A DNA stretch of 44,548 nt from Candidatus Woesearchaeota archaeon (GTDB lineage: Archaea; Nanobdellota; Nanobdellia; UBA10117; JABICX01): contig CAZGVA010000001.1 in the NCBI GenBank assembly GCA_964528765.1, forward strand, positions 1 through 44,548, in the 5' to 3' direction. Positions 18,001 through 39,222 of this stretch are shown in pieces. Both the position numbers and the translations under genes were made by a program. How positions within the stretch are numbered: the stretch's first letter is position 1; the number at the start of each line of letters is the position of its first letter. The notes under the pieces were generated by a model, which searched no databases, had not been told where the DNA came from, and saw nothing but the letters and a program-made list of their open reading frames with translations.

Positions 18001-21000
18001 GTTGGCTAAAAAGTTATGATTTTTTTCTACTTCTAAATTATACACAACTTCTTTTTCCTCAACTAAATATTTTTCAGTAATAATTTCCCGAGTTAAATCA
18101 TAAGATTCTGCATCAACCCCAATAAATACTTTTACCCATTGAATTAATTTAACAAATAAATTGTCTGATTTTACAAAAGTATTCTCGTCAAATATAAATA
18201 TCGTATCACCGACGCTTAACTCAGATGCATACACAAAATCCTTTTTAAAATCAAGCATATCTCCTACATTAATATTATTTTCTTTTGCAAATCCCGATTT
18301 AATTTCCAATACATATCTTGTGCTATTTAAATTCTTATCATATATTTTTCCAGGTAAAGCATTATGCTCCACCGCCAATACAACACCCTCAATATCTATC
18401 CAAATAATATCTAGTGAGTGTTTCAAAGTTTTAGTTTGTATTATTACATTGCCAATATCTTGAATCATAAACAAAACACCTTCATCTACCCAAGACTCTC
18501 GATCGGTTAATCCTTGAGTTTGTTCTTCTTTTGTATACAACCTATGTGGAGTAACAAGTTTTTCATTTTCTAGAACAATGTCAGTTTCGGTTAAAAATGA
18601 GTGGCTTCTAGTTGGTTTAACTGAATAATTATTTGCTTTCAGAAGATAATACTCTTGTGGTGAATACTCAAAAACATGTGTTACTCTATCTTTTTGTATT
18701 TTTCCAGTATCTACGTTAAAAGCGAAAATCGTATCATTAACTTTAATATCTTTTATTTTGACATCTCCAAATGTCGTATGCACTAAAGTGTCACCTGTAA
18801 GACATACATTATTCTCAATCTGTATCTGAAAATGAAGCTCATCCTCGTTATAATCCCAGCACGAGTCAGGTAGTGATTCATTAGTTGTTGTTGGTCCGCT
18901 TGCTGTATCCATTCTCACTTGTATTACACTTTCATTTGTTGCTCCTGCAGGTTTTGTATAATTGAAGTCACATACAGCAATCTGTCCATTACTTGAAGTG
19001 CCAAAAGTATCCCAATCACCATCATAAAAATTGGCTGCATCAACAGGACTTCCTGTACAACTATAACTTATATCTGGATCTTCTTGATAAGACCACTCAG
19101 GATCGTAAGCAAAATCACTAACTGAATCATTTTTATTATAAAAGTCAAATCTAATTGTTGCATAACCTGCAATGTGCATAAGATTGCTTAAGTAAGCTGT
19201 TTCTGAACAAGTGTAATTTTCAATTAGCCAATAATCTGGCTTAATTGATTGATTCTGGGCTAATTCTATGTATCTGTATGAATTATTCTGAGCATCTACA
19301 ATCAACAGAGAATCTGCTAAATTAATTGAATCATTAAGATTTGCCTCTCCGCAGGTCAGGTCTAAGAACCTCATTTCATCAACTGTTTCGTCTAAGTCAG
19401 TAAGTATCTCGGTCCAGTTGGCGTTTGGTGAAGAAATCTTCAAATCTGCAGTTCCACTTGTGTTGAAAGCAACTATCCATGTTTCTCCATCTCGCAAGTA
19501 TGTGTATGGATTCAAAACAATAATTTCAATTTCAAATACTTGATCTGAAGTGTGTGGTGTGATCCATTCTAACTTGTCAATTAAACCATCTTCATCCGCA
19601 TCAATCATCCATAAATCAATATTCTCATCCAGAGTAACATCTACTTTTGTTGTTGTAGTAATAACTTCAAAGTATGTTTCATTAGTAGTTTCATTAATCT
19701 GCTCAACTTCAGTAGTATTTTCTTGTATCCAGTACAACTGGATAGCAGATTCAGGAACTTGTTGCTCAAGAGTTGTATATGTAAGAATATTTTCATAGTG
19801 CAAATCTGAAGAAACTATAACTCTCTTTCCAAGATCTGTTGCTTCTTCAGTTGTTGTTGGAGCAGGAGTTTCATATTCAATAAGTAATTCATCATCAGAA
19901 GTGATATTATCATTAACAATAATTGTCTTGTTTGGACCATCTTCAAATGCTACATATCCTGTAATAGCCCCACTAAATGTTTGTTTTATCCAATTTACAA
20001 ATTTAATTAGTCCCAAATTATTTGTTTCGGAGACAGATGCTCCAGTTATTCCATAAACTTGCTCACTTGCGGGTATATCAAAACTTTCAGTTTCTGCTTC
20101 CGGATTAGCTAAGATATTTTCATCAGAAATATCATAAATTGAAATACCTTCAATATTCTCATCTGGAATTATCTCTTCAAAACCATGAGAATTAATTTTT
20201 TTGATTTTAATTTGAGTTGCATCTTCTGGAACTTCAATTAATAATTGTGTTGTATCGGATTCAGGCTGAACTAGAGTTGACCATTGAACGGGCTGGTTAA
20301 TAATTGCGTCAAATTGAACAGTTCTAACTCCCTCAGGTGTTTCGCTAATTATCTGCTCAATTTCAGGTGTATCATTTATTTCAGGAGTATTGTTCAATTC
20401 AGGAATTGTAAATTCTTCTTCAGGTGTTTCTTCGGTTTCATTCACAACTTCAGGTGTTTCAGTATCTTGTGGAATTGCTCCATAAACTACAAAATAGGTG
20501 ATTGATTCTTCTTCAGCAGGCATACTTGAGACTGCGCCAGTAACTGCATCTGAAATACCAAATTCTGTCTCTGAGACCGGGTCTTGGGTTGATTCTTCTA
20601 TATCTTTTTCAGGTGTTTCTTCTACTTCTTCAACTAGCTCTGGATCTTCTTGTGTTTCTTCTTTTTCAGATTGTTCTTCGGTTTTTTCAGGTATTTCAAA
20701 CTCAACTTCAGGTGTTTCTTCTTGTTCTGGTTGTTCTTCAGATTCAGTATCATTTGTTTCAGGTTGCTCTTCAGGTGTTTCAGATTGCTCAACAGATTCT
20801 TCAGAAGAAGTTGGAGATTCGTAAATTAAATTATCAAACACAATCTCAGCTTCAATACATAACTCATTTTCATAAACTTCGTTTTGAATTGCAAAGGATA
20901 TATCTGTTCCATCAGAAGTATAAACTGCAATTCCATCCATACAAACTTGTGGTTTGTATTCGTCAAAAGTTATTATTTGAGTAATTATTTCGTCTGACGG

Positions 21001-21162: not shown

Positions 21163-21415
21163 TCTTAGATAAAACCTCCATACCATAGCGAGTAATTTCA
21201 AAAATTCGAACTTGCGGTGTATTGATCACTTCGCGAATATAACCTCGTCCAATGAGATTGATAAGATGATTACGTGTAGTGCGCCAGTTTACATCAGCAT
21301 TTATGGCTAATTCATTGATATTTTTCTGACCGTTTGAAAGAGAAAGAAGTATCTTGCGTCGTAATTCTACGAAGGTTCGTTTACCGTTTTGTTTAGATTT
21401 TGTTTTCCTGACCAT
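21152..21415 (-). CDS. small winged-helix (wHTH) DNA-binding protein, 87 aa
   Basis: Basic N-terminus, then FVELRRKILLSLSNGQKNINELAINADVNWRTTRNHLINLIGRGYIREV..RIFEITRYG, a helix-turn-helix plus wing pattern of ArsR/MarR-like archaeal regulators. Its last 11 nt overlap the start of the giant ORF (ATGGAATTTAA). Confidence 0.65.
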   Translation of the reverse strand: MVRKTKSKQNGKRTFVELRRKILLSLSNGQKNINELAINADVNWRTTRNHLINLIGRGYIREVINTPQVRIFEITRYGMEVLSKNGI

Positions 21416-23592: not shown

Positions 23593-26500
23593 TTATTTTT
23601 GCTTAAATAATGCACTCATCTTCATACGTTTAGGCATAGTTTTTGCAGATGTTTTTTTCTTAATTGTATGACGTTTCTTATGTTTACGAATAGATTTTCC
23701 TTTATGCTTAAACATACTAGTTTTTGCAATTAATAATGCACCAATAATTACTGCTAGAACTGCAGTAACAATTAATGAAGTTTTTGCAGCAGGCAAACCC
23801 ACATCACGCTCAAGTTCAATTATAGATCCAGTTAAGCCATCCACTTCATACTCACATGCATCACAATCATTGCCTCCGCAATCAACACTTTCTTCATCAT
23901 AATTCCAAATATTATCTGAACAATGTATTGGATTACATTTTCTGGTCTCAATTGGCTTGTCAATTATTGAATTGCAATTACTTACATCCTTACATGTTCT
24001 TGCTTGAGTACCATTCACACAATTATACCAAGTACTACAACTCCACTCTTCGGTACAATTTTGGTTGTTTTTATTTACAACGGTAGCGCCGCCACCATTA
24101 TTATTATCATTATTTCCTGAAGGCGCTGGCGTATCTGCTTCATTTGAAGAAGTATCTACTGAGAAATTAACTGAATCAACATTAGCATTACCTGCAAGAT
24201 CTTCTACATACAAATTAAATGTATACTCTCCATCAGTATCAACTGCAAAAGTTATATCTGTGCAATCTGTCTCAGTATGTGGAATCACCGTATTTTCTGT
24301 AACTGCAAAAGTAACATTATATATACAATTGAGAGTGGTTTCATCCGATACATCATAATCAATGGATATATCTGTTGTTGAACTATATACACCAGTTGGC
24401 TCATCAACAGAAACTGATGGATTAATGGTATCTATACCAAATGTAGCATTACTGGAAAAGCCTTCACGATTCTGTGAATCATTGCAAGTCACTTGCCATA
24501 CATAATAACCTTCAGCTAAATTATCAAGATTAAACAAATTTGATTCTCCATTTGAAACCAACGTTTGATTAGATTGATTGAATTTAAATGTTCCAGTAAA
24601 ATTACTCCAAAGCTCACAAACTGCAAGATTTAAGCCCGATGTAACTGTATAATTGAAATTAATATTTGAACTATCTGATAGCCAAAGGTTATCTGGACTA
24701 TTTACATTAATTGCGGGAGCAGTAGTAACTACTGTAAATGTACTATTATCCTGTCCAAAAAATCCAATTGAATCGTTAGCATACACGTAAATTGTATAAG
24801 TTCCATCAGAAACCGAAAATGTGGAATTATCACAATTTAATATAGTAGTATTGGTTAAGCCTTCATTGAGAGAATACCAACATGAATCGATGGTTGAAAC
24901 ATCAGTAATTTCATATTCCAAAGGAACTGGAACAGATGCATATTGCGATTCTTCTGGAATTAAAATGGTGACAATTGGTGCAGTTGTATCAACTGAAAAA
25001 TCAATACTTGAAGAATTTTCATTTCCTGCAAGATCAACACAATAAATAATTAATGAATTACTACCTTCTGAAGCCGTTATGGTAGTATTTGGTGTGAACG
25101 TTGTATTTGATACGCCATCATCAAAAGAATATTTCCATGTGCTAATTTCTTCATTTGATGAAACATTAATATCGACTAAAGGTGTTATATATATGGTATT
25201 TTCAGGTCTAGCAATCTCAACGGATGGGTATATTGAATCAACACTAAATGTAACTGAATCACTTGCTTCTTCCCCCAAAGTATCATTAACATAAACATAG
25301 ATTGTATATTCACCATCATCAGCCATATCAAAAGTAAGATTATTACAAGAAGCTATAATTATATTCGACCCCTCATCAAGATTATACCAGCAGGAATCAA
25401 TATTATCGTCTGAATCTGCCACTTCATATTCTAAAGAAATTCCAGTCTGATATGTATAGGTATCTTCTTCTTCAGGAGCTAAAATAGATATTGTTGGTGC
25501 AGCGTTTAATATAGTATAATCTACGGTAACATTGTATAGGGCTGGAGCAGTATTGTAATTATTTGTTTCAAGCGAAACAAAATATTGGAAATATTGATTA
25601 TCTGAAATTGAAAGAGTTTGCGGAGATTGGTCAGCAATATCTATCCAAATTTCACCTGAACATGACGAATCAGCACAACTACGAATTTTGAAATCTAAAA
25701 TCGTTTCTTGAGCAACAGTGATTGTACCTTTAATATCACCATTTCCGCCATTAAAATTAATTGCAGATTTTGACCAAGTTATACCGTCTGTAGAATTCCA
25801 TACATCCTCATCAGCTTCAAAAATATATGCCATGTCACCAATAATTGTACTTGATTTTACATGTTGACCCTCTCCGGAATTATAATCATCACTTGTTTTG
25901 GTCCATGTTCCATGCGCATCTGAAGCTCGCCAAATATCATCATCACCTTCAACAACATAATAATATTGAGAAGTTACAATAAATGCGCCATTTGAATTAC
26001 CTTCTCCGTCATTAAAATCATCCTTAACAAGATTCCAAGAAGTTCCATCTAATGAATTCCACACATCAGATTGTGAGTCAACAACCCATAACGTACCGTC
26101 AGCATCAATATCCATTCCCTTAATATTACCATTTCCATCATTAAAATCATCATATACTTTTGTAAATGTAATTGCATTATCTATTGAAACCCATACATCT
26201 TCATTGCCATCAATAATGAACAATGCACTGCCATTATATTCTATAAATTTACTACTTGAGCCACTATCTGAATTAAAATCATCATTTATTTTTGTGAATG
26301 ATTGAGCAAAATCTGCTCCACGCCAGACATCCTGGTTATCAATAACATAAAAATAATTACCATCATAAGCAAGTCCATCAGCATCATTACCAACACCACC
26401 ATTATAATCATCTAAAACTAGTGTCCAAGTAAAACCCTGATCAATTGATTTCCAAATATCACTACTAGAATCTACGGCATATAATAAATAAGATTGGAAT

Positions 26501-27411
26501 GAATCAGATTCCCATTCAAACGTATTCCAAGAAGAATCTGCGCTAGCAGTATATATGTCTGAAGTATATGTTCCATTATTACCTGCACCATATTTCGCAG
26601 ACTGTCTTTGATAAATATTATAAATTTCTGAACGCGTTAAAGTTCGATTCCAAATAGCCACTTCATCAATAATTCCATTGAAAAAGTTACTTGGTCCGCC
26701 AGAATCCCATTCTTGTCCTACACTTGCTCTATCCGTATCGATTAAATCAGTGGTGATGGTTATATGTTCACGATCCAAATAACCGTCAACAAAAATACCT
26801 GAACGAGATCCATTAGTTTGAGCTACAACATAGTGCCATTCGCCATCAGAAATATCTACATAACCATTGCTTCCTTCAATTGATGCGTACCCTGCTGCCA
26901 TTTCTAATCGCCACTTATTATTATTAGCTGAGTCATGGAATGTAATTAAACCGGCATCTGTCGAACTATCTGCTTTAAGCCATAGCGCAACAGTAAAAAC
27001 ATCATCTAACTCTTCAGTAACACTATCGAACGAAAGATAATCATTTGATCCATCAAAATCTAATGCATTTCCTAATCGACCACTTGCAGAGTAAGTTGCA
27101 CCTTCATTTGTTCCATCATGATCATTACCTGAATAATCTAAGATTGTTCCAGATGTCTCATTAAGATGAAATAACACAACATTACCCGTCATATCAATGT
27201 AACCATCATCTTGCTGATCTGCCAGTAAATCTTTCTCTACATCATCCCATAACGCGAGAGTTAATGCGGTTGAATTATGTTCAGTATTATTATATTCACC
27301 AGTTTGAAGCGAAGTAAACATTTGTGTAGCAAATCCCGCCGACAAACCAACTGAAAGTAATAGTATTAAAGCAAATACTCTATAGAGCCCACTCTTTCTA
27401 TACATACTCAT
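23593..27411 (-). CDS. large surface protein, 1272 aa: signal peptide, LamG_3-like domain, six Asp-box (BNR) repeats, five Ig-like repeats, Cys-rich stalk, C-terminal TM anchor with basic tail
   Basis: Signal peptide: MSMYRKSGLYRVFALILLLSVGLSAGFA. LamG: LFHLNETSGTILDYSGNDHDGTNEG...GNALDFDGSNDYL...EWHYVVAQTNGSRSGIFVDG...IDEVAIWNRTLTRSEI. Asp-boxes: SIDQGFTW, SIDNAITF, SLDGTSW, ASDAHGTW, STDGITW at ~45-aa spacing. Five ~85-aa repeats ending ..SV(T/N)FSVD(T/S). Stalk: CTEEWSCSTWYNCVNGTQARTCKDVSNC. TM: TSLIVTAVLAVIIGALLIA, followed by a K/R-rich tail. Confidence 0.75.
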   Translation of the reverse strand: MSMYRKSGLYRVFALILLLSVGLSAGFATQMFTSLQTGEYNNTEHNSTALTLALWDDVEKDLLADQQDDGYIDMTGNVVLFHLNETSGTILDYSGNDHDGTNEGATYSASGRLGNALDFDGSNDYLSFDSVTEELDDVFTVALWLKADSSTDAGLITFHDSANNNKWRLEMAAGYASIEGSNGYVDISDGEWHYVVAQTNGSRSGIFVDGYLDREHITITTDLIDTDRASVGQEWDSGGPSNFFNGIIDEVAIWNRTLTRSEIYNIYQRQSAKYGAGNNGTYTSDIYTASADSSWNTFEWESDSFQSYLLYAVDSSSDIWKSIDQGFTWTLVLDDYNGGVGNDADGLAYDGNYFYVIDNQDVWRGADFAQSFTKINDDFNSDSGSSSKFIEYNGSALFIIDGNEDVWVSIDNAITFTKVYDDFNDGNGNIKGMDIDADGTLWVVDSQSDVWNSLDGTSWNLVKDDFNDGEGNSNGAFIVTSQYYYVVEGDDDIWRASDAHGTWTKTSDDYNSGEGQHVKSSTIIGDMAYIFEADEDVWNSTDGITWSKSAINFNGGNGDIKGTITVAQETILDFKIRSCADSSCSGEIWIDIADQSPQTLSISDNQYFQYFVSLETNNYNTAPALYNVTVDYTILNAAPTISILAPEEEDTYTYQTGISLEYEVADSDDNIDSCWYNLDEGSNIIIASCNNLTFDMADDGEYTIYVYVNDTLGEEASDSVTFSVDSIYPSVEIARPENTIYITPLVDINVSSNEEISTWKYSFDDGVSNTTFTPNTTITASEGSNSLIIYCVDLAGNENSSSIDFSVDTTAPIVTILIPEESQYASVPVPLEYEITDVSTIDSCWYSLNEGLTNTTILNCDNSTFSVSDGTYTIYVYANDSIGFFGQDNSTFTVVTTAPAINVNSPDNLWLSDSSNINFNYTVTSGLNLAVCELWSNFTGTFKFNQSNQTLVSNGESNLFNLDNLAEGYYVWQVTCNDSQNREGFSSNATFGIDTINPSVSVDEPTGVYSSTTDISIDYDVSDETTLNCIYNVTFAVTENTVIPHTETDCTDITFAVDTDGEYTFNLYVEDLAGNANVDSVNFSVDTSSNEADTPAPSGNNDNNNGGGATVVNKNNQNCTEEWSCSTWYNCVNGTQARTCKDVSNCNSIIDKPIETRKCNPIHCSDNIWNYDEESVDCGGNDCDACEYEVDGLTGSIIELERDVGLPAAKTSLIVTAVLAVIIGALLIAKTSMFKHKGKSIRKHKKRHTIKKKTSAKTMPKRMKMSALFKQK

Positions 27412-27502: not shown

Positions 27503-28183
27503 CTAAATTAACTCCTCTGCATTAATTAATGTTCGTGGCCAGGAATCTTCAACAAGTCTTGGACAAGCAGTATTTATCCAAACATCAATGTCTTGAAAAT
27601 TTAGCATGTTTTCTGCAGTGATTATATCTGAAATGAATGTATATGTGTTTGAAAATCTCTTTTGTACTTTTTTAGCTAAGTTTGGCTTGTATTGACCTGG
27701 CTTTGTTGACAGAATAATTCCTACTTTATTAGCCTGTTTTAATTTATCCACTCTTGCTGCTTGTTTAGCAAGATATTTCCTATTGTCTTGTTCAGTAAAC
27801 ACTTTCATATGCATAGAAAATGGATTAATTTTTATCACCGGTTTACTTGTTTCAATAGTAATCTCAATTGGATGAAACTCGCCAGTACCAATATATAGAA
27901 AAGCATCAACTTTCATGGATTTTGATGCAGTTGCATCACATCCAAGTATTTGACCTGCATACGTAGTACAAGGTCCTTGACAATCTTTCGTTTTCTTTGA
28001 TTTACCAATTAAAACTTTCAAACCTTGTGATTCAAGATATTTTTTAGCTTTATTTAATTGTCCAATATGTTGGACTGTTGTAAATAATCCAATTATTTGA
28101 TATTTCTGAATTTGTTTAAGATTTTTTCTAATTGATTTAACAATATCTTGATCTGACCTTGCTTCAATGAACATAGTTTGCAT
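27503..28183 (-). CDS. dph2: 2-(3-amino-3-carboxypropyl)histidine synthase (diphthamide synthesis Dph2), C-terminal fragment (domains 2-3), 226 aa
   Basis: TTVQHIGQLNKAKKYLESQGLKV...AGQILGCDA...FLYIGTGEFHP...INPF...VGIILSTKPGQ...IDVWINTACPRLVED match archaeal Dph2 from just after its first domain. Own ATG, and a TTTTAAATATA box about 22-32 nt upstream. Confidence 0.8.
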   Translation of the reverse strand: MQTMFIEARSDQDIVKSIRKNLKQIQKYQIIGLFTTVQHIGQLNKAKKYLESQGLKVLIGKSKKTKDCQGPCTTYAGQILGCDATASKSMKVDAFLYIGTGEFHPIEITIETSKPVIKINPFSMHMKVFTEQDNRKYLAKQAARVDKLKQANKVGIILSTKPGQYKPNLAKKVQKRFSNTYTFISDIITAENMLNFQDIDVWINTACPRLVEDSWPRTLINAEELI

Positions 28184-28217
28184 AGTATATACTGTAAAAT
28201 ATATTTAAAAGGTTAAT

Positions 28218-29267
28218 CTATCTCAATCTAAACGCATAATGTACTTTCCCTTTTTTTTCAATAATATCAAAGTATCCTTTTAATTTAGCTATCTGTCGAT
28301 TACGAGGCAGATTATGTTCACGAATATCTCCGTTATCGTTGAATAAAATATTATGCAGTTGAGCTTCTGTAAATCTTGTTTTATAAAATCCTTCATCAAC
28401 AATTACACCTGCGAAATCATTAACCACTTTCCTAAATTGTTCGTTAGTAAGATTAAAATGGTGTGCTTTACGGTAATCTTGTTGTATATGTATAGCTTTT
28501 ACGGGAAAGCCAGCACGTGCTAATGTTGCTTGTGCAATCTTAAATTCTTCAATTGATTCGAAAACACCTGTATCCAATAATGGTTGAATGCCAGTCATCT
28601 GAAGTATTTTTTTATAACGTCTCATACCAACACCTAAAAATTTACGATACACCGTAGTATTGTAACTATATGGTTTTTTAGGCATCCATTCAAGGTAAAT
28701 AATTCCCGCAATACTTTTTCTAAGTTTTAGCAAGCCCATATAATAATCGCTAATTGCTTTTTCACTATCATGAATATATGATTTATCACCAACACGCATT
28801 TCAACACAGACCCTTGCTGGATGAATAACAAATGATCTAAATCCTAATTTATTTGCTTTTAAAATAAATGCTTCAAGTAATTGAAAGGTATTATAGAATT
28901 TACGTGTAGCTTTGTCCCATTCAGGATATACGTCATCATATCTTGAACCTACGGGAACATGTAATCGAATATTACGTAAAGGTATCTTCTTAGAAACTAA
29001 AATAGCTTTTAACTCAACTAAACGATTAAGAAATACTGATTGTAAGTCATTATTATAGTAATCATTTTTATCTAAACCCATACCTACCTCAATTGTGACA
29101 AATTTCAACTCAATAATATCATCTAAGAACTTTTCAAAATCTTCATTGAAAATTACAGACTTTGCAAGAACGATTTTTCCTTCTTCAAACATCTGAGAAA
29201 TATACTCCCAACTATTAAATAAATTACGTCTATAATGATTAAAATTTAAAAAAAAAGAAAAATCCAA
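28218..29267 (-). CDS. hypothetical protein, 349 aa; possibly a xylose-isomerase-like / AP-endonuclease-2-like TIM barrel (tentative)
   Basis: Alternating strand/helix pattern with strand ends FVTIEVG, IRLHVPVG, FVIHPAR, IIYLEWMP, PLLDTG, AIHIQQD and GVIVDE. No firm family call. Confidence 0.3.
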   Translation of the reverse strand: MDFSFFLNFNHYRRNLFNSWEYISQMFEEGKIVLAKSVIFNEDFEKFLDDIIELKFVTIEVGMGLDKNDYYNNDLQSVFLNRLVELKAILVSKKIPLRNIRLHVPVGSRYDDVYPEWDKATRKFYNTFQLLEAFILKANKLGFRSFVIHPARVCVEMRVGDKSYIHDSEKAISDYYMGLLKLRKSIAGIIYLEWMPKKPYSYNTTVYRKFLGVGMRRYKKILQMTGIQPLLDTGVFESIEEFKIAQATLARAGFPVKAIHIQQDYRKAHHFNLTNEQFRKVVNDFAGVIVDEGFYKTRFTEAQLHNILFNDNGDIREHNLPRNRQIAKLKGYFDIIEKKGKVHYAFRLR

Positions 29268-29273
29268 ATCTAT

Positions 29274-29558
29274 CTATTTAATCTTTGAAAAGATTTGGAA
29301 AACCATCGTAATGGCTCCGATTAGCACTAAAACAAATGCAATTACTATGAAGATCAATTCGACCCAAGGAACGATACGACCGATAACTTGTACTCCCTCT
29401 GCTGTCTTGACTACTGCGCCAAGAAGTAAGAATACTGCTCCGGATGCAACGTAACTTAACTCTTTTTTGATTAAATCAACGTAACCACTATATTTCAAGA
29501 ATGCTAATCCCAAAAGTAGGCCAATACCTACACCAAGTGTTCCTTCAAAACCTAACAT
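29274..29558 (-). CDS. small membrane protein, 94 aa (about 3 TM helices)
   Basis: Gly/Leu/Val-rich hydrophobic segments. 6 nt upstream of the 349-aa ORF; own AT-rich upstream region. Confidence 0.55.
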   Translation of the reverse strand: MLGFEGTLGVGIGLLLGLAFLKYSGYVDLIKKELSYVASGAVFLLLGAVVKTAEGVQVIGRIVPWVELIFIVIAFVLVLIGAITMVFQIFSKIK

Positions 29559-29646
29559 TGCTTTTCACCTATAATTTAAGTTGACTACCTATATACTCTG
29601 TTCTATATAAATATAATTTATTACTATAACAAAACAAAAACATGGA

Positions 29647-29895
29647 TTAAATTTTAGAATGACCAAAATTAATTACTAAATCAAATTTTAAATTAGATAA
29701 CTGGGAGGGAATATCGCATGCCCCAAAATTACTTCCAAACCAAACCTGAACATCGGCATTAGTTTTTTTCTTTAAGATATCAACAATTTTAGTTGCTTTT
29801 GGTTTTAAACCATCTGGTAATTGAATACAAACTTTCTTTGCATTAGATTTCTTAATTGCATTTACAATTTTATTAAGTTCAAAATCAACTTCCAT
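29647..29895 (-). CDS. dph2: diphthamide synthesis Dph2, N-terminal fragment (domain 1), 82 aa
   Basis: KKVCIQLPDGLKPKATKIVDILKKKTNADVQVWFGSNFGACDIP...FDLVINFGHS is the Dph2 N-terminal signature (..alQfPdGL....yGACd....d.l.H.GHs). It stops two codons after GHS. Confidence 0.8.
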   Translation of the reverse strand: MEVDFELNKIVNAIKKSNAKKVCIQLPDGLKPKATKIVDILKKKTNADVQVWFGSNFGACDIPSQLSNLKFDLVINFGHSKI

Positions 29896-29927
29896 AAATA
29901 TATAAATGAAAAAAAGTTTATAAATAT

Positions 29928-30227
29928 ATGGTTAAGCGGACAGTTACTCAAGCAAAACTTGCGAAATATAAGAAATTAACAGAAAAAGCACTTAATATGG
30001 TTAAAATTAAAGCGGATATTAGTGCTAAAGATAAAAAAATCTGTGAAAAATATATTGATTTTTGCTCTAGATACTTATCAGATGCTAATCATTTTGAAGA
30101 TAAAGGGGACTTCGTAACTGCTTTTGCAGCCATTAATTATGCTCATGCGTGGCTAGATGCTGCGGCTATTGCGGGTTTTCTAGATATAAAACACAAAAAT
30201 AGAAATAAATATTTTACAATTGATTAG
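29928..30227 (+). CDS. DUF357-like small archaeal protein, 99 aa
   Basis: YLSDANHFEDKGDFVTAFAAINYAHAWLDAAAIAGFLD resembles the DUF357 core (..D..f...gD...A.a..sYa.GwLDag...G). Confidence 0.45.
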   Translation: MVKRTVTQAKLAKYKKLTEKALNMVKIKADISAKDKKICEKYIDFCSRYLSDANHFEDKGDFVTAFAAINYAHAWLDAAAIAGFLDIKHKNRNKYFTID

Positions 30228-31836
30228 CTTCTTCAAGCTTACGTTTAAGATTACGTATTTGCCATTCTAACTCGGAAACTAATTGTGACCGTTTAAAATC
30301 TTCTTCAGACGTATGTTCACCTGCAGCACGTCTCTGTGCTTCTTTTGAAACTTGCTCAGTTAAACTTCGTTCAAGTTGCTCAAACTGAAATATAAGATGC
30401 TTAAAATCATGCATATCTTCTGAACCTGATAAATAAGTATTTTCTGAAGAATTAGATTCATCAGTTGTGTTTGAAGCACCATAATCAGATGAACTTGTTT
30501 GTTCAGATGATTGTTGTATTGGTTGAATTATTTCAAGCGAATTTCCACTAAATTTAATATCTTGTCCATCTTCAATGGATTTAGTATTATTTTGTATTAT
30601 TGCTGGAACTGAAAAATCTTTACAAATCTGAATTGCTGGTGAAGTCAAACCCGTAGAACCACAAACATAACCTTTTGCTTGAACTAAATATGGGAACAAC
30701 TCTCTTTCAGATTCATTTGTCACAAGGATACTCTCCGTAGTAAACTTTTGAAAATCATCATTAGTTGAAATTAATGTAGCTTGTCCCTCAGACGTTAAAT
30801 TATTTATTAAAATGCCTTTATCGGTATAAATTAGGGGTTTACTAAATAATTGTGTAATCGGTCTAGTTTGCAAAATATGAATTGAATTACGAACAATTGC
30901 CCATTCGATATATTGTGGAAAATTCATGATACTCTCAACTTGCGCAGACAAATCTGATAGAGCTTTACGTTCACCTTCTGAAAGAGTTGGTGACGGAGAT
31001 AAATTTGAAGGCAATGTTTCTAATAATAATTCACCAAACTGCGCATTTTTTGTATAGTATTTTTGCTGATTAACTTCTTTAACATAATTTACTACATTTG
31101 TTTGCTTATTAAATACAAAAACTGCTGGATTGTGCAACATTCCTGCATTCATGCCCCAAATAACTTGCGCATATATATCTGTTTTTGAATTTTTAATTGG
31201 ATCAATTGTAAACATATCACCCGATTTAACTGCATGAACCATTTTCTGTACAATTACTGAAACTGAAAAATCAAAATGACCTATATTGTGTTTATACCGA
31301 TAGTATATAGCCCATGGCGAAAAAATCGAGGCTAGTGCACTCTTTAATCCTTCACAAACTTGCTCAATTCCATAAACATTAAGTGACGATTCAAACTGAA
31401 ATGGAAAATTCTTTGTAGGTGAAAGTCGAATAGCTAAAAACGGTAAATCTCGACCCGACGTAACTAATTGTCTAGTTAATGCACTCATATTTTCATGGTC
31501 AGGGTGCTCATTGATTTTTTTATAATTATCTAATAATAAATTCTGAATTTCTGGAGTAATCGTAAATCTTGAAAATATGGTTTTTATTGTATTTGATGCT
31601 TCGTATGCACTTTTAAGATCTGAAACCATTGAAAGGGCAGATTCGATTTCTGTGCGGAATGCGTGTATTATACCATCATAAAATTTGGAATCAATAACAA
31701 AAGCATTTGGTACAGGTAATTTATGATTATATAATTCTGCAAGATATGCTACCTTTTCACCAAAATAATCTGCGTCAGATAAGGATAGATTTTTCAACCA
31801 GTGAATCAAAGATTTGTCCATATAATAAGAACACAT
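30214..31836 (-). CDS. PEP synthase / pyruvate phosphate dikinase-like protein (ATP-grasp PPDK_N-like domain plus swivel domain), lacking the C-terminal PEP/pyruvate domain and the catalytic His; acidic/Ser-rich linker and coiled-coil tail
   Basis: N-terminus: DADYFGEKVAYLAELYNHKLPVPNAFVIDSKFY (GGK..NL.EL...g.pVP.GF type). Swivel domain: ILVTNESERELFPYLVQAKGYVCGSTGLTSPAIQICKDFSVPAI, against the consensus GG.TSHAAI.ARE.G.PAV. Confidence 0.6.
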   Translation of the reverse strand: MCSYYMDKSLIHWLKNLSLSDADYFGEKVAYLAELYNHKLPVPNAFVIDSKFYDGIIHAFRTEIESALSMVSDLKSAYEASNTIKTIFSRFTITPEIQNLLLDNYKKINEHPDHENMSALTRQLVTSGRDLPFLAIRLSPTKNFPFQFESSLNVYGIEQVCEGLKSALASIFSPWAIYYRYKHNIGHFDFSVSVIVQKMVHAVKSGDMFTIDPIKNSKTDIYAQVIWGMNAGMLHNPAVFVFNKQTNVVNYVKEVNQQKYYTKNAQFGELLLETLPSNLSPSPTLSEGERKALSDLSAQVESIMNFPQYIEWAIVRNSIHILQTRPITQLFSKPLIYTDKGILINNLTSEGQATLISTNDDFQKFTTESILVTNESERELFPYLVQAKGYVCGSTGLTSPAIQICKDFSVPAIIQNNTKSIEDGQDIKFSGNSLEIIQPIQQSSEQTSSSDYGASNTTDESNSSENTYLSGSEDMHDFKHLIFQFEQLERSLTEQVSKEAQRRAAGEHTSEEDFKRSQLVSELEWQIRNLKRKLEEANQL

Positions 31837-32738: not shown

Positions 32739-35138
32739 ATGACAAATAGGTACTACTCACTAAGAGAATTTAGTACAATTGCAAAGCTAGCAGAGCTTTC
32801 AAAAAAAGCGGGTTTTGATTTTATTTTCAATTTTAATTTAGGTAAATTTGAGTGCAAACAAATTCAGATTAATAAAACTCAATCAAACTTAGTTAATGTT
32901 GATGCTGAAGAATTTACTGACCAAGTTAGTTTAATGAGAGATTTTGCATTGACTAATGACGTTCCATTTAATATTAGATATTTTGCAGGTCAAAATGAAG
33001 CTAATCCTACTTTTTCACAGTTCTTTGATAGTTCTTTTACCACTAAAACACCTGAACAAGCAAATCCGGGGCGTATGAGAAAATTTATTGAAAAATTAAA
33101 ATCACCTACTGCCCTAAAAGCATATAGCCTAGGTGCAGTTGGGCTTATGGTAATAAGTCCGATGCTAAGCCCGATATTTGCTTTAGTTAAAGATTATTTT
33201 TCAAATGATTCTGATAAAGTGATTGATACTAAAACAAGTCATGAAACTTTGGAGATTAATGATTATATTGATATAAATGCAGAAGGCAATCGTCAGATTA
33301 CAGATAATACCTCGACCAATTTAGTTGAAATGCTTGATTCAACTCCCGGAAGATTATTTGATCATATGATTGAAAAAGATGGTTATCTCTATATATCCGA
33401 TAGTGGCTTAAAAATATTAAACATAAGCGACCCTGCAAATATTGACATAATTGGTAATTATTCTTCAGAAAACTCAATGGAAGTAATTTTATCTGGAAAA
33501 ACAGCCTATTTATTTGACAAAGTTGATGGAGATTGGGGTATATCAAAAATTGATATAAGTGATCCAACATCACCGAATTTAGATCAAAGAAAAATAATTT
33601 CAAATGATTACCTCGGATTAGTTAGACTAAGTAACGATAAATTACTCGTAAGAAATATTTATATGAATGGCGAAAGCTTAATTTTGGATAATAATTTAAA
33701 TGAAATAAGTAGCACTACAAAAAATATCCTAAATCCGAACAATAATCAAAATAAATTATATGAAATCGAAGTTCTGAATACAACGCAAGTACGTTTGCAC
33801 ACAATAGATAGTTCGCTGAATCGAATTGCTTCATCAAATACTGTTGAAAAACCTGAAAGTTCAATATTTATTTCAGTAAATTATATTGATAATAAATTAA
33901 TATTCACTACTGGGTCAGACTATTACACAAATCAAAGCTCAACAAGTATTTTTGAAGAAAAAGATAATAAATTAAATGAAATATCGCACGTTACGGATGG
34001 TCCAATTACTCTTGCAATTAAAAATTATTTACTTACGCAATATATTGATAATGAAAAACAAGGGGTAAGCTCAAGTTTATGGTCTACTAAAGACTCGGCA
34101 AATACCTATAAAACAAAAGAAAGTTTGCTTGGAAGTATTTTAGTTGAAGCAATTTCACCTGAAAGCGATATTATTATTGGTTTCAATAATACGCATTTTA
34201 TAACATATCGTCTAAATATGCCTAAAACAATCTCACCACAAGATTATACTATAACAAAAATTGACCCAATTGAGCCATTTACACAAGGTGATTTAATTGG
34301 TGTATTCAAATATGCGTTTGACCAATCAATTCAAGTTACACCTAAAGCAATAGATAATACAGTACATGGCGTGATTAAATCTAATAAATTAACCAATCTT
34401 CAATTAAATTTAGAAACACAAAATGGACAAAGTATTCCATTTGATATTATCCCAAATGAAGATGGAACATATGTTACACGCGTTGAAGCAGGCGAAATTA
34501 ACCTTAATTTTGCAGATTTATTAACTGGTACCGTCGGTTTAGGTGAAATACTAAATTCAGCCGTACAACAATATGGTGAATTAGAATACACCTTAAGTGG
34601 ATATGATAAAGAAGGTTTTTATTATCAATTAAAAACTGGCATACATCCGATAACTATTGAAGAAAATATTCGTGATTTGCAACAAAACCTCGGAGATAGT
34701 TCATATGGCGTATTTTATTGTCCAATTTATTTGCAAATTGTTTCACCTGATGGACAAAGAATAGGCCATTTTGATGGTGAAGATGTTACAGATATGTTAA
34801 ATAGCTTTTACTCTGGAAAAGATAGTCATCCGCAATTTTTCTTTACACCCAATGAAAATATACAACTAGCCAGTATCGCGTATGATTCGGGTCAAGTAGA
34901 TGGACGAGTTTTTGCTGAAAAAAATAATAACTTTAATTCAAATTCAGTTTCGCATACCGTAACTGCTGGTCAGAAAACCTCTTACGATTTACCAAAAGCA
35001 CCTGATAACAATACAAATCAAATTAATATAATGCCAATTGCAATTGGCGCAGGTATTGTCGGCGTAGGTGCTGCAAAATTATATTCAAATCGGAAAAAGA
35101 AAGCTAGTCATAAAATTGATCATAATCGTCACAAGTAA
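32739..35138 (+). CDS. LVIVD-repeat (beta-propeller-like) surface protein, 799 aa, with an internal TM near aa 130-150 and a C-terminal TM anchor
   Basis: DGYLYISDSGLKILNISDPANIDIIGNY and AYLFDKVDGDWGISKIDISDPTSPNL match the LVIVD repeat pattern (a.vad...GL.i.DiSdP..P). TM helices: LGAVGLMVISPMLSPIFALV and IMPIAIGAGIVGVGAAKLY, followed by RKKK. Confidence 0.5.
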   Translation: MTNRYYSLREFSTIAKLAELSKKAGFDFIFNFNLGKFECKQIQINKTQSNLVNVDAEEFTDQVSLMRDFALTNDVPFNIRYFAGQNEANPTFSQFFDSSFTTKTPEQANPGRMRKFIEKLKSPTALKAYSLGAVGLMVISPMLSPIFALVKDYFSNDSDKVIDTKTSHETLEINDYIDINAEGNRQITDNTSTNLVEMLDSTPGRLFDHMIEKDGYLYISDSGLKILNISDPANIDIIGNYSSENSMEVILSGKTAYLFDKVDGDWGISKIDISDPTSPNLDQRKIISNDYLGLVRLSNDKLLVRNIYMNGESLILDNNLNEISSTTKNILNPNNNQNKLYEIEVLNTTQVRLHTIDSSLNRIASSNTVEKPESSIFISVNYIDNKLIFTTGSDYYTNQSSTSIFEEKDNKLNEISHVTDGPITLAIKNYLLTQYIDNEKQGVSSSLWSTKDSANTYKTKESLLGSILVEAISPESDIIIGFNNTHFITYRLNMPKTISPQDYTITKIDPIEPFTQGDLIGVFKYAFDQSIQVTPKAIDNTVHGVIKSNKLTNLQLNLETQNGQSIPFDIIPNEDGTYVTRVEAGEINLNFADLLTGTVGLGEILNSAVQQYGELEYTLSGYDKEGFYYQLKTGIHPITIEENIRDLQQNLGDSSYGVFYCPIYLQIVSPDGQRIGHFDGEDVTDMLNSFYSGKDSHPQFFFTPNENIQLASIAYDSGQVDGRVFAEKNNNFNSNSVSHTVTAGQKTSYDLPKAPDNNTNQINIMPIAIGAGIVGVGAAKLYSNRKKKASHKIDHNRHK

Positions 35139-35628
35139 ATTCATATGCTAAACCATCTAGTTTTATTTCTGTAACTATTTTAAACTGCTTAGAATCGCGT
35201 ATTACAGATAACTTATCTGAATCGCTAACTACTAATGTAAACGTAGCACCGTCTTTTTTAAAAGTAATTCCTGGGTATTGAATAGTTAAACCCATATTTT
35301 CTGACCGCAAATCATCAGGGGTTTCAAAATCGATTTCATTTATGTCCAACGTCTCAAACCCTGCTAAATTAGTTTCGCAACTACCTTCGAAGTCATCTAG
35401 ATAAGCGTCCATAACTTGTAAAGCTGAATATTTCATATATTTTTCTAAATAAAATCGTGCACCTTCAGCAACAGTATAACTGTTTAGTAAATGTATTTGG
35501 TCTGCCCCAATTTCAGTTGTTTCAGTTAAAGCTAAATTATTTGAGCGAATAAATACAATTGCAACGAATATTAAAATAAACATAATTCCAATATCAATCA
35601 GTGACCCTTTTTTATTCAGAGTTATCAA
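35104..35628 (-). CDS. prepilin-like (class III signal peptide) protein, 174 aa
   Basis: MITLNKKG-SLIDIGIMFILIFVAIVFI. Overlaps the upstream gene by 17 nt. Confidence 0.6.
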   Translation of the reverse strand: MITLNKKGSLIDIGIMFILIFVAIVFIRSNNLALTETTEIGADQIHLLNSYTVAEGARFYLEKYMKYSALQVMDAYLDDFEGSCETNLAGFETLDINEIDFETPDDLRSENMGLTIQYPGITFKKDGATFTLVVSDSDKLSVIRDSKQFKIVTEIKLDGLAYEFTCDDYDQFYD

Positions 35629-36070
35629 TTAAACCGACCTCCAAATTTCTCCCATCTTCTATTGTTGGTAGATATTGTGTGCAAAATGGTTTTGTATAAT
35701 CACCAATACCTGCGTACATTTCAATAATATTTTCTTGGACGATTATATTATCCTCATCTACATCTTGCGTACCATATATGCCTGCCAATATCTCATTAGC
35801 TTTGTCAATAATAATATCCTGTTCATCTGAATCAGACATTGCCAAAGCATCTGCAAAATCATATTCCGCATATCCCTCATCTAATTGAACGGGTGAACGT
35901 AACATGCTTAAAAGAGTTACATCACAACCCTGAAACCGCGTAGCACCTTCTACTAAATAATAAAATTCCAAGTTAGTATTTGGTCTCATAATCATAACAC
36001 TTATACCCATTAATCCAATAATTATAATTGAAAAAAGAAATGTTGCTAAATCAAAATTACCTTTTTTCAT
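35612..36070 (-). CDS. prepilin-like protein, 152 aa
   Basis: MKKG-NFDLATFLFSIIIIGLMGISVMI. ATGA overlap with the upstream gene. Confidence 0.6.
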   Translation of the reverse strand: MKKGNFDLATFLFSIIIIGLMGISVMIMRPNTNLEFYYLVEGATRFQGCDVTLLSMLRSPVQLDEGYAEYDFADALAMSDSDEQDIIIDKANEILAGIYGTQDVDEDNIIVQENIIEMYAGIGDYTKPFCTQYLPTIEDGRNLEVGLIDNSE

Positions 36071-36564
36071 AAAATGACCTCCAGTGTACCTGTTTTCAAT
36101 ATATTATTTTCCCAATAATTAACCACATATATTTGTGGTTCAGATTTTAGTTTTTCTGCAGTCCAACGTATTGTACTAGTTCCATCTTGTTCAGTTAAGG
36201 TTAGTTTAAACTTTGCTGAACCATCTTTAGTTAAACATGAAAGAATATTACTCTTAGTAAACTTCTCCAAGTCAATAATACCTGCATGAACAAAATTATT
36301 GTCATCTTGATATGCTAAACATTCAGGTGCAGTAATAATCCGAGTAGCTTTAATATCATACGTAAGCTCACTTAGTGAAAAGCCAGTTACAACAAAATAA
36401 TCTTGAATTAATGGGTTAATTAACATTATCACACCAAATACAAAAACACCCATAGATCCAATTAATGAAATTAATTTAACTTCCCAACCCTGACCTTTTT
36501 TACCTTTAATTAACATTTTAGAAAATATTGAACTATTTGAATAAGTTGAATGTTTCACCTCCAC
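36067..36564 (-). CDS. prepilin-like protein, 165 aa (more likely starts at internal Met, 36516)
   Basis: ..MLIKGKKGQG-WEVKLISLIGSMGVFVFGVIMLI. Confidence 0.6.
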   Translation of the reverse strand: MEVKHSTYSNSSIFSKMLIKGKKGQGWEVKLISLIGSMGVFVFGVIMLINPLIQDYFVVTGFSLSELTYDIKATRIITAPECLAYQDDNNFVHAGIIDLEKFTKSNILSCLTKDGSAKFKLTLTEQDGTSTIRWTAEKLKSEPQIYVVNYWENNILKTGTLEVIL

Positions 36565-37513
36565 AATCTACTCCAATACGAATATTTCCCGCAGATTTTC
36601 TAAATGCAATATTTTCGGGATATTCATAAGTATTCTTGCTCTTACCATATATATGACTCATAGCTTCATTTGTTGCTTTGTCTAAGGTAATGTCATCATC
36701 GCCAAGATAATACTTATTAATTCCATCAACCACCTTCCGAGTTACCTCACCCCCGATTTTTTCCGCGTTGTCAACCAATCCTGCTGCGCAAAAATCTTCA
36801 AAACCGATATAAATACAACGATTTGGATAATTATAATAGATTAACTCGGACTTAGAAAATTTTGAACTTTTTCTTTGTTCATTGATAAGTGCAATCGCTT
36901 TTTCTGAAGAGGAAAAACCCGTAATGCTCATAAGTTTATTTTGTTCTGATTTTTCTTCAAGTAAATATTTATCAGAAAAATCAAGTTGATTATGATTTCC
37001 AACAACGAAACCTAGGATAGAAAATCGATCTCTTAGTTCGTTAATAATTTTTAAACCACTAATAAATACATCGCCTACTGCGGTCCCAACTTCAACTGCG
37101 CCATTATAAATAAATGCGGGTGCTACGCTTAATAACTCTTTAAATGTTTCAATTGTTTTCTGTTCCTGTTCTTCACAAATAGAAAAACGAGATACCGTAA
37201 CCTCATCATCATCTAATATTAATGATGCAACAATATATTCTCGATTTGTTGGGTTTAAACCTTGTGAGCCATCATCAGGGCTCCAGCTTGCCCAATGCAT
37301 AAAACTTTTTTTCCAATTATCTTTTGGAAAAGTGTATTGAACATATGTTTCTTCAGGAGCGGCAGCAACGGAATCCATAGTTAATGCAATATTTGTCGCA
37401 ATGTAGCCCGGTCCATGATCTGCCAGAAGTCCGATTTTTACACCTACAATAAGCACTACTCCTAAACCGAGTAGGATTGCAATAGTTACACCGACTTCTA
37501 ATACTGATCCCAT
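36533..37513 (-). CDS. prepilin-like / N-terminally anchored protein, 326 aa
   Basis: MG-SVLEVGVTIAILLGLGVVLIVGV. The ATG overlaps the stop of the 36-aa ORF (TAATG). Confidence 0.6.
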   Translation of the reverse strand: MGSVLEVGVTIAILLGLGVVLIVGVKIGLLADHGPGYIATNIALTMDSVAAAPEETYVQYTFPKDNWKKSFMHWASWSPDDGSQGLNPTNREYIVASLILDDDEVTVSRFSICEEQEQKTIETFKELLSVAPAFIYNGAVEVGTAVGDVFISGLKIINELRDRFSILGFVVGNHNQLDFSDKYLLEEKSEQNKLMSITGFSSSEKAIALINEQRKSSKFSKSELIYYNYPNRCIYIGFEDFCAAGLVDNAEKIGGEVTRKVVDGINKYYLGDDDITLDKATNEAMSHIYGKSKNTYEYPENIAFRKSAGNIRIGVDCGGETFNLFK

Positions 37514-37623
37514 TATTTAACGAAATTTAGTAAAACTGTACCCATAATAACTAGTACAGCCATAAATAATAACAAGTAAACAATCATTATTGGAAAATTA
37601 TCTGAACTTGCTTTTTGATTCAT
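37513..37623 (-). CDS. unlisted small membrane ORF, 36 aa
   Basis: Verified translation: MNQKASSDNFPIMIVYLLLFMAVLVIMGTVLLNFVK*. The stop overlaps the ATG of the 326-aa gene by 1 nt. A promoter-like 18-mer lies 16 nt upstream. Confidence 0.5.
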   Translation of the reverse strand: MNQKASSDNFPIMIVYLLLFMAVLVIMGTVLLNFVK

Positions 37624-37639
37624 ATAATAAAGAACATAT

Positions 37640-37657
37640 ATTTAATATAAACTCTTC
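37640..37657 (-). promoter_or_regulatory. BRE/TATA-like promoter element GAAGAGTTTATATTAAAT (copy A)
   Basis: 16 nt upstream of ATG 37623. TATA-like TTTATATT starts at -28. Confidence 0.45.
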
Positions 37658-37660
37658 GGA

Positions 37661-37768
37661 CTATTTAATTTGCATAAAAATATACCAAATAAAATACCCT
37701 GTAACTATTGCAAATAATATAAAAGAAATTTCCCAAACAGGTATATCTGATACGCCACGTTTTAACAT
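37661..37768 (-). CDS. unlisted small prepilin-like ORF, 35 aa
   Basis: Verified translation: MLKRG-VSDIPVWEISFILFAIVTGYFIWYIFMQIK*. The identical promoter-like 18-mer lies 16 nt upstream. Confidence 0.5.
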   Translation of the reverse strand: MLKRGVSDIPVWEISFILFAIVTGYFIWYIFMQIK

Positions 37769-37784
37769 AATAAATATGTCTGAA

Positions 37785-37802
37785 ATTTAATATAAACTCT
37801 TC
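37785..37802 (-). promoter_or_regulatory. BRE/TATA-like promoter element GAAGAGTTTATATTAAAT (copy B, identical to A)
   Basis: 16 nt upstream of ATG 37768. Confidence 0.45.
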
Positions 37803-37878
37803 TAAAACGTATCTACTAATTAGATGGGTGTTCTCACAAAAATAGATAGGTTTTTATGCGTTTTGTTCTTAGTTTTAT

Positions 37879-39222
37879 ATGATAGATACTACACTTACAA
37901 GTCATGAAACGCAAGCACAAGAGATAATAACTACTTATAATGCGCCATTTAAATTAGTTGGAAATCAAATTAGACATTTAGGAAATACTTCTGAGTTATA
38001 TCACAATGTAACTAAACTTCAAGACATTGCATTTAATACTCGAGATGAAAAAGGTAACAAAATACAATTAGAAGATGTTATGTTTGGCAAAGCATTTCAG
38101 CAAGCCATAGCTGAAAAAGATTCTTTAGAACTACCTGAACTTTTAATGGACAGCTTAAATAATGCTGAAGAAATGATTGAAAAATACAAGCTTCCTTGGA
38201 AAATAGAAGAAGTAACTGATCCAAATAGTGCGAATTACTCAATTGGTGAGCAACTTGTACATACTGGTAAAAATGGTTGGTTATATCAAGATGCTATGGA
38301 CCTCGTAGTTTTATGTAATACTGAAGGTTTGACTTTTGATGACCGAGCATTTGAACAAACTGCTTATTTTTCAGCAATTACTGAAGATAAAGCTTGGCAT
38401 AAAAAACAAATTCTTGCCGGAAATATAACTGAAACGGGTTATAAAACAAAAAAACCCAGTTTATTATCACGACTTTTCGGTGGACTAAAAAATACCTCAA
38501 AATCACCGATAGAAGGTCATTTTAAAGCAAATTATAATCAAAATCGTTCAGTCTCAGGTATATATTATCCAATAATCCCGAAAATTATTGATTCAATTAG
38601 TGATACATTGGCAACGCGCAAAGAATTTGCAAAACATGGCGTTGTTCAAACTGAACCTACGCACCAAAAAACTAAAGCAATTCTCGGAGCAGGATTATTT
38701 GCTAGTGCAACTGCAGTAACACTTACTGCAGGCTGTATTGAAAGTAATAGCCACTCGGATGATGAATATGTAGGTGAAGAATTTCATATTTGGAAAAACG
38801 CTGATCAACAATTTTTAAGTGGAACAACAATAAGATACGATAACGAGTTAGGAAAAACTATTGAACAAAGAAATGGGGTCCAAGAAGGAGACTCAGTAAT
38901 TGTTCATGGTAGCATTAACGTACTTGCGTTTGGGAATAATCGTGATTATACAGGTGATGGTGTCAATGATTCATATACATTTACCGGTTTTGTAACTCAT
39001 CAAGATAACTGTGAAATGGGCATATATGAATTTGGAAAACAAGATCGTAATACATCTCTTTGGTGGCAAATTAAACAAACTGTTAGGAAAGTAACTAATA
39101 ATGATACGCACATTATAATTGATATCCCATCAATACACGCAAATGACGATGAACGTCCAGATTTGTGGCAATATGTAAAGATAATTCCAGAAGATAATAA
39201 AACAAAACCTGTTGAATTGTAA
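37879..39222 (+). CDS. hypothetical membrane protein, 447 aa (soluble N-terminal ~270 aa, one TM followed by a Cys, ~150-aa C-terminal domain)
   Basis: The TM AILGAGLFASATAVTLTAGC resembles a lipobox-like LTAGC. No family recognised. TTTTTATG box at about -28. Confidence 0.55.
   Translation: MIDTTLTSHETQAQEIITTYNAPFKLVGNQIRHLGNTSELYHNVTKLQDIAFNTRDEKGNKIQLEDVMFGKAFQQAIAEKDSLELPELLMDSLNNAEEMIEKYKLPWKIEEVTDPNSANYSIGEQLVHTGKNGWLYQDAMDLVVLCNTEGLTFDDRAFEQTAYFSAITEDKAWHKKQILAGNITETGYKTKKPSLLSRLFGGLKNTSKSPIEGHFKANYNQNRSVSGIYYPIIPKIIDSISDTLATRKEFAKHGVVQTEPTHQKTKAILGAGLFASATAVTLTAGCIESNSHSDDEYVGEEFHIWKNADQQFLSGTTIRYDNELGKTIEQRNGVQEGDSVIVHGSINVLAFGNNRDYTGDGVNDSYTFTGFVTHQDNCEMGIYEFGKQDRNTSLWWQIKQTVRKVTNNDTHIIIDIPSIHANDDERPDLWQYVKIIPEDNKTKPVEL

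Follow-up and report, generated by a model that had tools for sequence, protein, structure and literature searches.

Dph2 is the 2-(3-amino-3-carboxypropyl)histidine synthase of diphthamide synthesis. In its passages on the enzyme, an earlier study of DPANN (Diapherotrites, Parvarchaeota, Aenigmarchaeota, Nanoarchaeota and Nanohaloarchaeota) archaea describes a split Dph1/2 with separate genes for the N-terminal and the C-terminal domain and reports Dph5 in Woesearchaeota (Narrowe et al. 2018, PMC6143161), and the corresponding passages of a second study name the split for Parvarchaeota, Pacearchaeota, Woesearchaeota and Altiarchaeota (Dombrowski et al. 2019, PMC6349945). The nanoarchaeote Nst1 has dph2 among its split protein genes, listed as Nst 222 + Nst 440 (Podar et al. 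2013, PMC3655853, Table 1). Here we describe a split dph2 in a 44,548-nucleotide stretch of DNA from a Candidatus Woesearchaeota archaeon (contig CAZGVA010000001.1, positions 1 to 44,548), which we refer to as the window, where the two halves of the gene, the N-fragment and the C-fragment, lie on the minus strand between positions 27503 and 29895 with two other genes between them. dph2 is among the known split genes, and the window is a further, Woesearchaeota-like instance of the published split.

The window shares with the published DPANN cases the enzyme, the kind of lineage and the layout of one N-terminal and one C-terminal gene (PMC6143161, PMC6349945). Supplementary tables aside, the passages of these two papers that treat Dph1/2 note the split only, and give neither the breakpoint relative to the cluster ligands nor the gene order, nor the nested gene T and the cargo slot described below. 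Nst1 resembles the window as a genome-reduced DPANN archaeon with a split dph2 (PMC3655853), but its halves are far apart in the genome by their gene numbers, whereas those of the window are separated by 1.46 kb and co-oriented. Single-chain archaeal Dph2 (P. horikoshii 3LZD; 6q2d; 6bxm) aligns with the two fragments along its length and shares with them FGACD, LGC, ACPR, GxGxFHP and KPGQ; in contrast to it, the window encodes two polypeptides, with a linker shorter by ~7 residues and a C-terminal tail of ~25-35 residues missing. The eukaryotic Dph1-Dph2 heterodimer likewise consists of two different polypeptides and relies on non-canonical cysteine ligands for its clusters; however, eukaryotic Dph1 and Dph2 are full-length paralogs with three ligands each (PMC11048331), whereas in the window a single catalytic unit is divided, and one cluster would be shared by two chains. 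The two halves are the following.

27503..28183, minus strand: dph2 C-fragment, 226 aa, Dph2 domains 2-3, with LGCD, TACPR, GxGxFHP and KPGQ (PF01866, TIGR03682 and 6q2d alignments)
29647..29895, minus strand: dph2 N-fragment, 82 aa, Dph2 domain 1, ending in GHSKI followed by the stop codon (PF01866, TIGR03682, 6q2d and 6bxm alignments)

Four open reading frames (ORFs) of 82, 94, 349 and 226 aa occupy the minus strand of 27503..29895. A preliminary description of this DNA, made from the letters alone, had placed all four there, had put the two Dph2 fragments on the same strand 1,463 bp apart, and had read the shorter fragment as Dph2 domain 1 and the longer one as a resumption of the family alignment about 8 residues later; the positions and the spacing (29647-28183-1 = 1,463) are exact, and profiles and structures bear out the reading, with a gap of ~7 residues. 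Thus the three domains do not lie on a single chain here, being carried by two ORFs with two genes between them. Residues 26-81 of the N-fragment correspond to positions 1-56 of the 302 in PF01866 (E 2.6e-11, 43.9 bits) and residues 2-213 of the C-fragment to positions 64-273 (E 2.7e-45, 155.5 bits), against a cutoff of 33.2 bits, and TIGR00322, with a cutoff of 35, scores them at 77.6 and 151 bits, respectively, such that both fragments exceed these curated Dph2/Diphthamide_syn cutoffs. On the 308 positions of TIGR03682 the N-fragment covers 1-64 (59.7 bits) and the C-fragment 72-284 (182.3 bits). N-fragment residues 5-81 align to residues 9-85 of the 6q2d chain and C-fragment residues 2-214 to residues 93-300, and in the 6bxm alignment the two fragments correspond to residues 8-84 and 92-294. 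All four alignments (PF01866, TIGR03682, 6q2d and 6bxm) leave ~7 linker residues or profile positions absent at the junction and nothing duplicated; the domain boundaries used here come from these alignments. The C-fragment stops about 25-35 residues short of the ends of the solved and fused enzymes, and because this shorter C-terminus is common to all split relatives it does not represent damage.

P. horikoshii Dph2 holds its [4Fe-4S] cluster through Cys59, Cys163 and Cys287, one cysteine at each of three positions, of which Cys59 adjoins Asp60 (PMC11048331); the preliminary description had named the same three residues. The window matches the cysteine motifs of the solved enzymes with FGACDI (Cys60) on the N-fragment and with ILGCDA (Cys82) and NTACPR (Cys207) on the C-fragment, such that the three cysteine ligands of an archaeal Dph2 are furnished jointly by the two fragments, one on the first and two on the second, in the division that had been proposed. 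The C-fragment also contains an insertion, KDCQGPCTTY (27971..27985, residues 67-71), which brings two extra cysteines (C-x3-C) ten residues before Cys82. Both occur only in the closest relatives (P0003, with one of them in P0014), and the insertion is absent from fused Dph2.

The same division of the enzyme recurs across many lineages. A search with the C-fragment returned 365 proteins at E <= 1e-10; among the 119 other matches listed, 110 stand alone at a length of 183-249 aa, share 35-71% identity with the C-fragment and, where a source is named, come from metagenome-assembled genomes (MAGs) of Woesearchaeota, Nanoarchaeota or Nanoarchaeia, and nine are full-length proteins of 321-331 aa whose named sources are Methanococcoides or Halobacteriota. 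The stand-alone C-fragments in our alignment (A1) all begin at one column, M-x-x-LFIEA, equivalent to "EKVLFIETR" of full-length Dph2, and C82, C207, GxGxFHP, KPGQ and TACPR are invariant in it. We also surveyed 80 species-representative genomes or loci with six-frame ORFs and iterated hidden Markov models. Fused dph2 was found in 47 of the 80 (Methanosarcinales, Hadarchaeota, Halobacteriota, one Aenigmatarchaeota and one unclassified archaeon) and split dph2 in 33, nearly all labelled DPANN. The closest species-representative relatives are Saanich-Inlet-type Woesearchaeota MAGs, with a C-fragment 61% identical to that of the window, and in a Parvarchaeota-labelled locus (L030) the C-fragment stands alone as a 225-aa ORF whose match begins at residue 4, which agrees with a breakpoint at this position.

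Split N-fragments end 3-14 residues past a conserved GH (3 residues in the window), where the linker of fused enzymes measures 11-12 aa, and the C-fragment of the window starts 3 residues ahead of the next conserved strand. These ends argue that the break is, as aligned, within the 11-12-residue linker that joins the first alpha/beta domain (...NFGH) to the first strand of the second (MFIEA...). The ligand and catalytic motifs of both halves are unchanged across lineages down to about 35% identity, the G-x-C-D ligand motif being kept in 64/64 unique split N-fragments, and the dN/dS ratio of nonsynonymous to synonymous divergence (Nei-Gojobori, moderately diverged locus pairs) is 0.01-0.23 for the N-fragment and 0.03-0.20 for the C-fragment. 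In a neighbour-joining tree of the C-domain all fused sequences group together, apart from the split ones.

Each half is also preceded by a promoter-like signal of its own.

28200..28210, minus strand: TATA box TTTTAAATATA, beginning 27 nt upstream of the C-fragment ATG, inside the 34-nt spacer that precedes this gene
29917..29924, minus strand: TATA-like box TTTATAAA, beginning 29 nt upstream of the N-fragment ATG

A box 27-30 nt before the start codon is the geometry expected of archaeal leaderless transcripts. The C-fragment has the ATG and the upstream box that the preliminary description gave it, and across loci TATA-like heptamers are most frequent at -30 to -27 relative to the start codons of the C-fragment and the N-fragment (-30 to -28 for the N-fragment). 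Among 68 unique upstream regions of split C-fragments, 36 contain such a heptamer between -33 and -26, as against 4 and 2 in control windows, and an alignment of the spacers shows the C-fragment promoter block of the window conserved in relatives that lack the gene found immediately upstream of it here. By position and letters, we infer that TTTTAAATATA would be the independent promoter of a leaderless C-fragment transcript and TTTATAAA the promoter of a leaderless N-fragment transcript.

The halves are intact and complementary, are under purifying selection and share their breakpoint with relatives, as expected of a functional split gene. Shared breakpoint, conserved motifs, low dN/dS, separate promoters and tree together argue for one old fission of dph2 that has been maintained by selection. 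The preference for a functional split gene over decay that had been voiced on the letters alone is therefore well founded: the breakpoint is shared, the motifs are invariant, dN/dS is well below 1 and the C-fragment has a separate promoter in many lineages. We assign a probability of roughly 85% to the reading in which Dph2 is an inherited, lineage-wide and functional two-gene enzyme, whose domain 1 docks on domains 2-3 and supplies the third ligand, and in which the two genes between the halves are mere neighbours. The products of the two halves would be made from separate promoters, and the N-fragment would dock non-covalently on the C-fragment, with Cys60 joining Cys82 and Cys207 around one [4Fe-4S] cluster. 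The assembled unit would dimerise as single-chain archaeal Dph2 does, and the dimer would transfer the 3-amino-3-carboxypropyl moiety of S-adenosylmethionine (SAM) onto the EF-2 histidine. Assembly of two chains around one shared cluster, as anticipated in the preliminary description, is modelled on the single-chain Dph2 structure and is supported by comparative conservation, which suggests that the two products would associate and be active.

Four observations weigh against this reading. Neither fragment alone reaches the TIGR03682/arCOG04112 equivalog cutoff of 202.8 bits, although the plain sum of 242 bits would; each falls short because the gene is split, as is expected for halves. The papers found report no biochemistry on association of the two polypeptides, on cluster binding or on EF-2 modification. 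Profile searches of the window, which covers part of the genome, detected no second dph2 and no dph5, dph6 or EF-2. Lastly, the ancestral architecture depends on a tree built by neighbour joining from highly divergent sequences.

The alternative that survives best concerns the gene that follows the N-fragment, which we call T.

29274..29558, minus strand: T, a 94-aa predicted three-helix membrane protein (AlphaFold2 (AF2) model, recurrence in relatives)
29565..29570, minus strand: AGGTGA, a ribosome-binding-like site of T
29604..29611, minus strand: TATA-like box of T

T had been described as a membrane protein, in agreement with the AF2 model, which has a mean predicted local distance difference test (pLDDT) score of 81 and helices at residues 4-24, 27-55 and 63-93. 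The protein contains neither Cys nor His, and Pfam, NCBIfam, a PDB profile search and a Foldseek search of PDB folds returned only sub-threshold hydrophobic matches. The order N-fragment, T, C-fragment (N-T-C) repeats in independent assemblies, tightly packed in some (L004, L008 and L011) and with genes added in others. When 80 metagenome loci were retrieved with T alone, the N-fragment lay upstream on the same strand in 68 (68/71 of the informative loci), at a median gap of 76 bp; nine of the remaining loci are cut by a contig end and three are unexplained. The C-fragment lies downstream of T in 47/80 loci, at a gap of <150 bp in 26 of these, and two tandem T paralogs are present in 38/80. 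In every locus found to have the two halves in the same orientation on a single stretch, T separates them, and the dN/dS of T is 0-0.16. At synonymous sites T has diverged far less than its N- and C-fragment neighbours in some locus pairs (e.g. dS 0.014 vs 0.55 and 0.52), and in others the relation is reversed (pairs concerned: L108/L113, L116/L122 and L001/L087); such uneven divergence suggests mosaic recombination across the locus.

T could be linked in function to the split enzyme, for example by tethering it to the membrane, by taking part in its assembly or as a co-regulated third component, or it could have split dph2 by its insertion. Consistent with such a link, T is seen solely in dph2 N-T-C contexts, no locus examined shows the N-fragment followed directly by the C-fragment without T, the N-T-C loci are spread over several deep split clades, and T surpasses both Dph2 fragments in conservation (82% identity between the window and L001, versus 70% for the N-fragment and 61% for the C-fragment). 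However, one clade of split C-fragments has neither N-fragment nor T within 10 kb, at least 10 of its loci having the full 10 kb upstream, and a linked T is therefore not required for a split dph2. In addition, the N-fragment, T and the C-fragment often have separate promoter-like signals, unrelated genes break both the N-to-T and the T-to-C interval, T offers no Cys, His or recognisable domain, and in lineages with two copies T adjoins large surface proteins, which suggests a role in the cell envelope. We therefore regard such coupling, or a split caused by T, as unlikely. Put in its broadest form, that T is integral to the split-dph2 locus, whether its insertion into the linker made the split or it works with the two-piece enzyme, for example at the membrane, the idea is doubtful. 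Either way, the N-T-C order would have been kept over very deep divergence (Woesearchaeota, Pacearchaeota and Nanoarchaeia). The nested T gene is not described in the literature found on split dph2/Dph2, which was reached by searches aimed at the split rather than at this gene and with supplementary tables excluded; the nested, conserved T is the only item here that may be new.

The second gene between the halves, X, belongs to the interval between T and the C-fragment.

28218..29192, minus strand: X, a 324-aa near-orphan protein whose ORF extends to a TTG at 29267 (349 aa) (homologs, AF2/Foldseek)

The 349-aa ORF that had been reported (28218..29267) exists as such, but it begins at a TTG, and its start is to be moved: the ATG at 29192 is the most likely start and gives 324 aa, matching the called protein and both homologs. 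These are the only two homologs among 5.8 billion proteins, and when 1.84 billion representatives were searched exhaustively with a profile, the same two came back together with one weak match and nothing else; Pfam yielded nothing even at E <= 10, neither AP_endonuc_2 nor any related model included, NCBIfam and the PDB sequences gave no match, and X is not present in any of the 165 other loci examined. At the level of fold, the AF2 model, of medium confidence (predicted template modelling score, pTM, 0.70), resembled D-tagatose 3-epimerase in Foldseek (E 8.5e-8, template modelling score about 0.53), as well as UVDE and UlaE, in keeping with the possible TIM (triosephosphate isomerase) barrel that had been proposed. 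X is accordingly predicted from its model, and at fold level only, to be a divergent xylose-isomerase-like TIM barrel: it looks like the D-tagatose/D-allulose 3-epimerases, UlaE and UVDE in predicted fold without a sequence-level match, and its invariant E168, D207, H235 and E267 would lie on successive strand ends, resembling the metal tetrad of the superfamily.

A homolog 76% identical to X occupies the same slot of an independent metagenome contig, in the order N82-T94-X323-HIT162-C226. The C-fragment apparently on the same contig as this homolog (P0005 and P0122, respectively) is only 60% identical to that of the window, and X may either evolve more slowly than Dph2 or have been exchanged between lineages. 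In the spacer alignment X is placed exactly between the T-rich tail of T and the conserved C-fragment promoter, and the interval from T to the C-fragment acts as a cargo slot in general, its length across loci running from a few-base overlap to 7.6 kb. X is best viewed as variable cargo, and a connection with diphthamide synthesis is unlikely. There are indeed two genes between the halves, as the preliminary description had it, but its phrase "split by a two-gene insert" misleads, the split being old and predating X, and T being a conserved resident. A mobile-element origin of T plus X was also considered and rejected: no target-site duplication was found and no domain of a transposase or integrase, the repeats are short, AT-rich and attributable to chance, and the GC content (0.29-0.33) is not distinct. 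Where a lineage has two tandem T copies, the T-to-C slot is repeatedly filled by surface proteins of 750-1,400 aa from a single family (31 members; L015, L017, L018, L100-L125, L131, L143 and L152), with Ig-like (Big_5), fn3 and Kelch domains and a Cu-binding_MopE-type Cys motif, a hint that T may go with genes of the cell envelope rather than with Dph2.

Two observations could suggest that the C-fragment acts alone or with another partner through its two Cys ligands, the N-fragment being repurposed or dispensable: the C-fragment lies >10 kb from any N-fragment in many genomes, and most of the conserved motifs sit on it. We consider this very improbable, since the N-fragment preserves its G-x-C-D motif without exception in the 64 unique sequences at a dN/dS of 0.01-0.23, and the cluster of solved Dph2 draws on cysteines from three positions, including Cys59 (PMC11048331). 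The interruption of the gene, the ~7 missing linker residues and a C-terminal tail shorter than that of the solved enzymes might likewise be read as remnants of a dph2 disrupted by insertion. The conservation of breakpoint, intact ORFs and invariant motifs with dN/dS well below 1 across dozens of lineages, the conserved promoter of the C-fragment, and the short C-terminus of all split relatives, matched by short fused DPANN proteins (304-310 aa), lead us to reject decay, which we hold to be scarcely credible. An assembly chimera, or a rejoining of the halves by trans-splicing, a split intein or ribosomal bypass, has nothing in its favour except the interruption itself and is the least credible of all: assemblies produced independently in several projects show the same N-T-C order, and the occurrence of X in the same slot of an independent contig rules out a chimera, while the fragments account exactly for Dph2, the junction ends hold no unaccounted sequence for intein halves (6q2d, 6bxm and comparison of N-fragment ends), and in relatives 2-5 complete genes, some on the opposite strand, separate the halves.

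The remainder of the window contains the following features. Downstream of the C-fragment, 23593..27411 (minus strand) encodes a predicted surface protein of 1,272 aa, with LamG/Laminin_G_3 and Big domains, a Cys-rich C-terminal region, a transmembrane anchor and a Lys-rich tail; it sits between the C-fragment and the DUF4013 and RNA_pol_L genes, which follow the C-fragment directly in relatives, and shows no BLAST relationship to the recurrent surface proteins of the T-to-C slot. A giant ORF of at least 7,075 codons (1..21225, minus strand) extends beyond the left end of the window, has a signal- or transmembrane-like N-terminus near 21180, and has syntenic counterparts of 12,630 aa, 8,977 aa and >3,034 aa in relatives. 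On the other side, at 29928..31836, a DUF357 gene on the plus strand and a 540-aa PPDK_N/PEP-utilizers gene on the minus strand overlap convergently by 14 nt; relatives conserve both genes next to the N-fragment, and the 540-aa product, whose matches end near model position 450, is missing the C-terminal part of full-length (~800-aa) phosphoenolpyruvate (PEP) synthases. About ten ORFs, mostly on the minus strand, occupy 35104..44512 with almost no Pfam matches, and several of them have N-terminal hydrophobic segments and may be pilin-like or signal-anchored. A transfer RNA scan of the window found none.

The current understanding of diphthamide synthesis is unchanged by these results. In its passages on Dph1/2, the study of Narrowe et al. 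(PMC6143161) already raised the point that the split upsets single-copy marker counts for genome completeness. What is added here is the placement of the breakpoint in the linker after domain 1, with a 1+2 division of the ligands, the common occurrence of own promoter-like boxes before both the N-fragment and the C-fragment, and T, a strongly conserved gene for a small membrane protein nested between the halves, which is a marker of a large DPANN clade and a candidate for work on its function. The split implies a radical-SAM-type [4Fe-4S] site that would be ligated by two polypeptides, and thereby offers a natural experiment on the modularity of Dph2.

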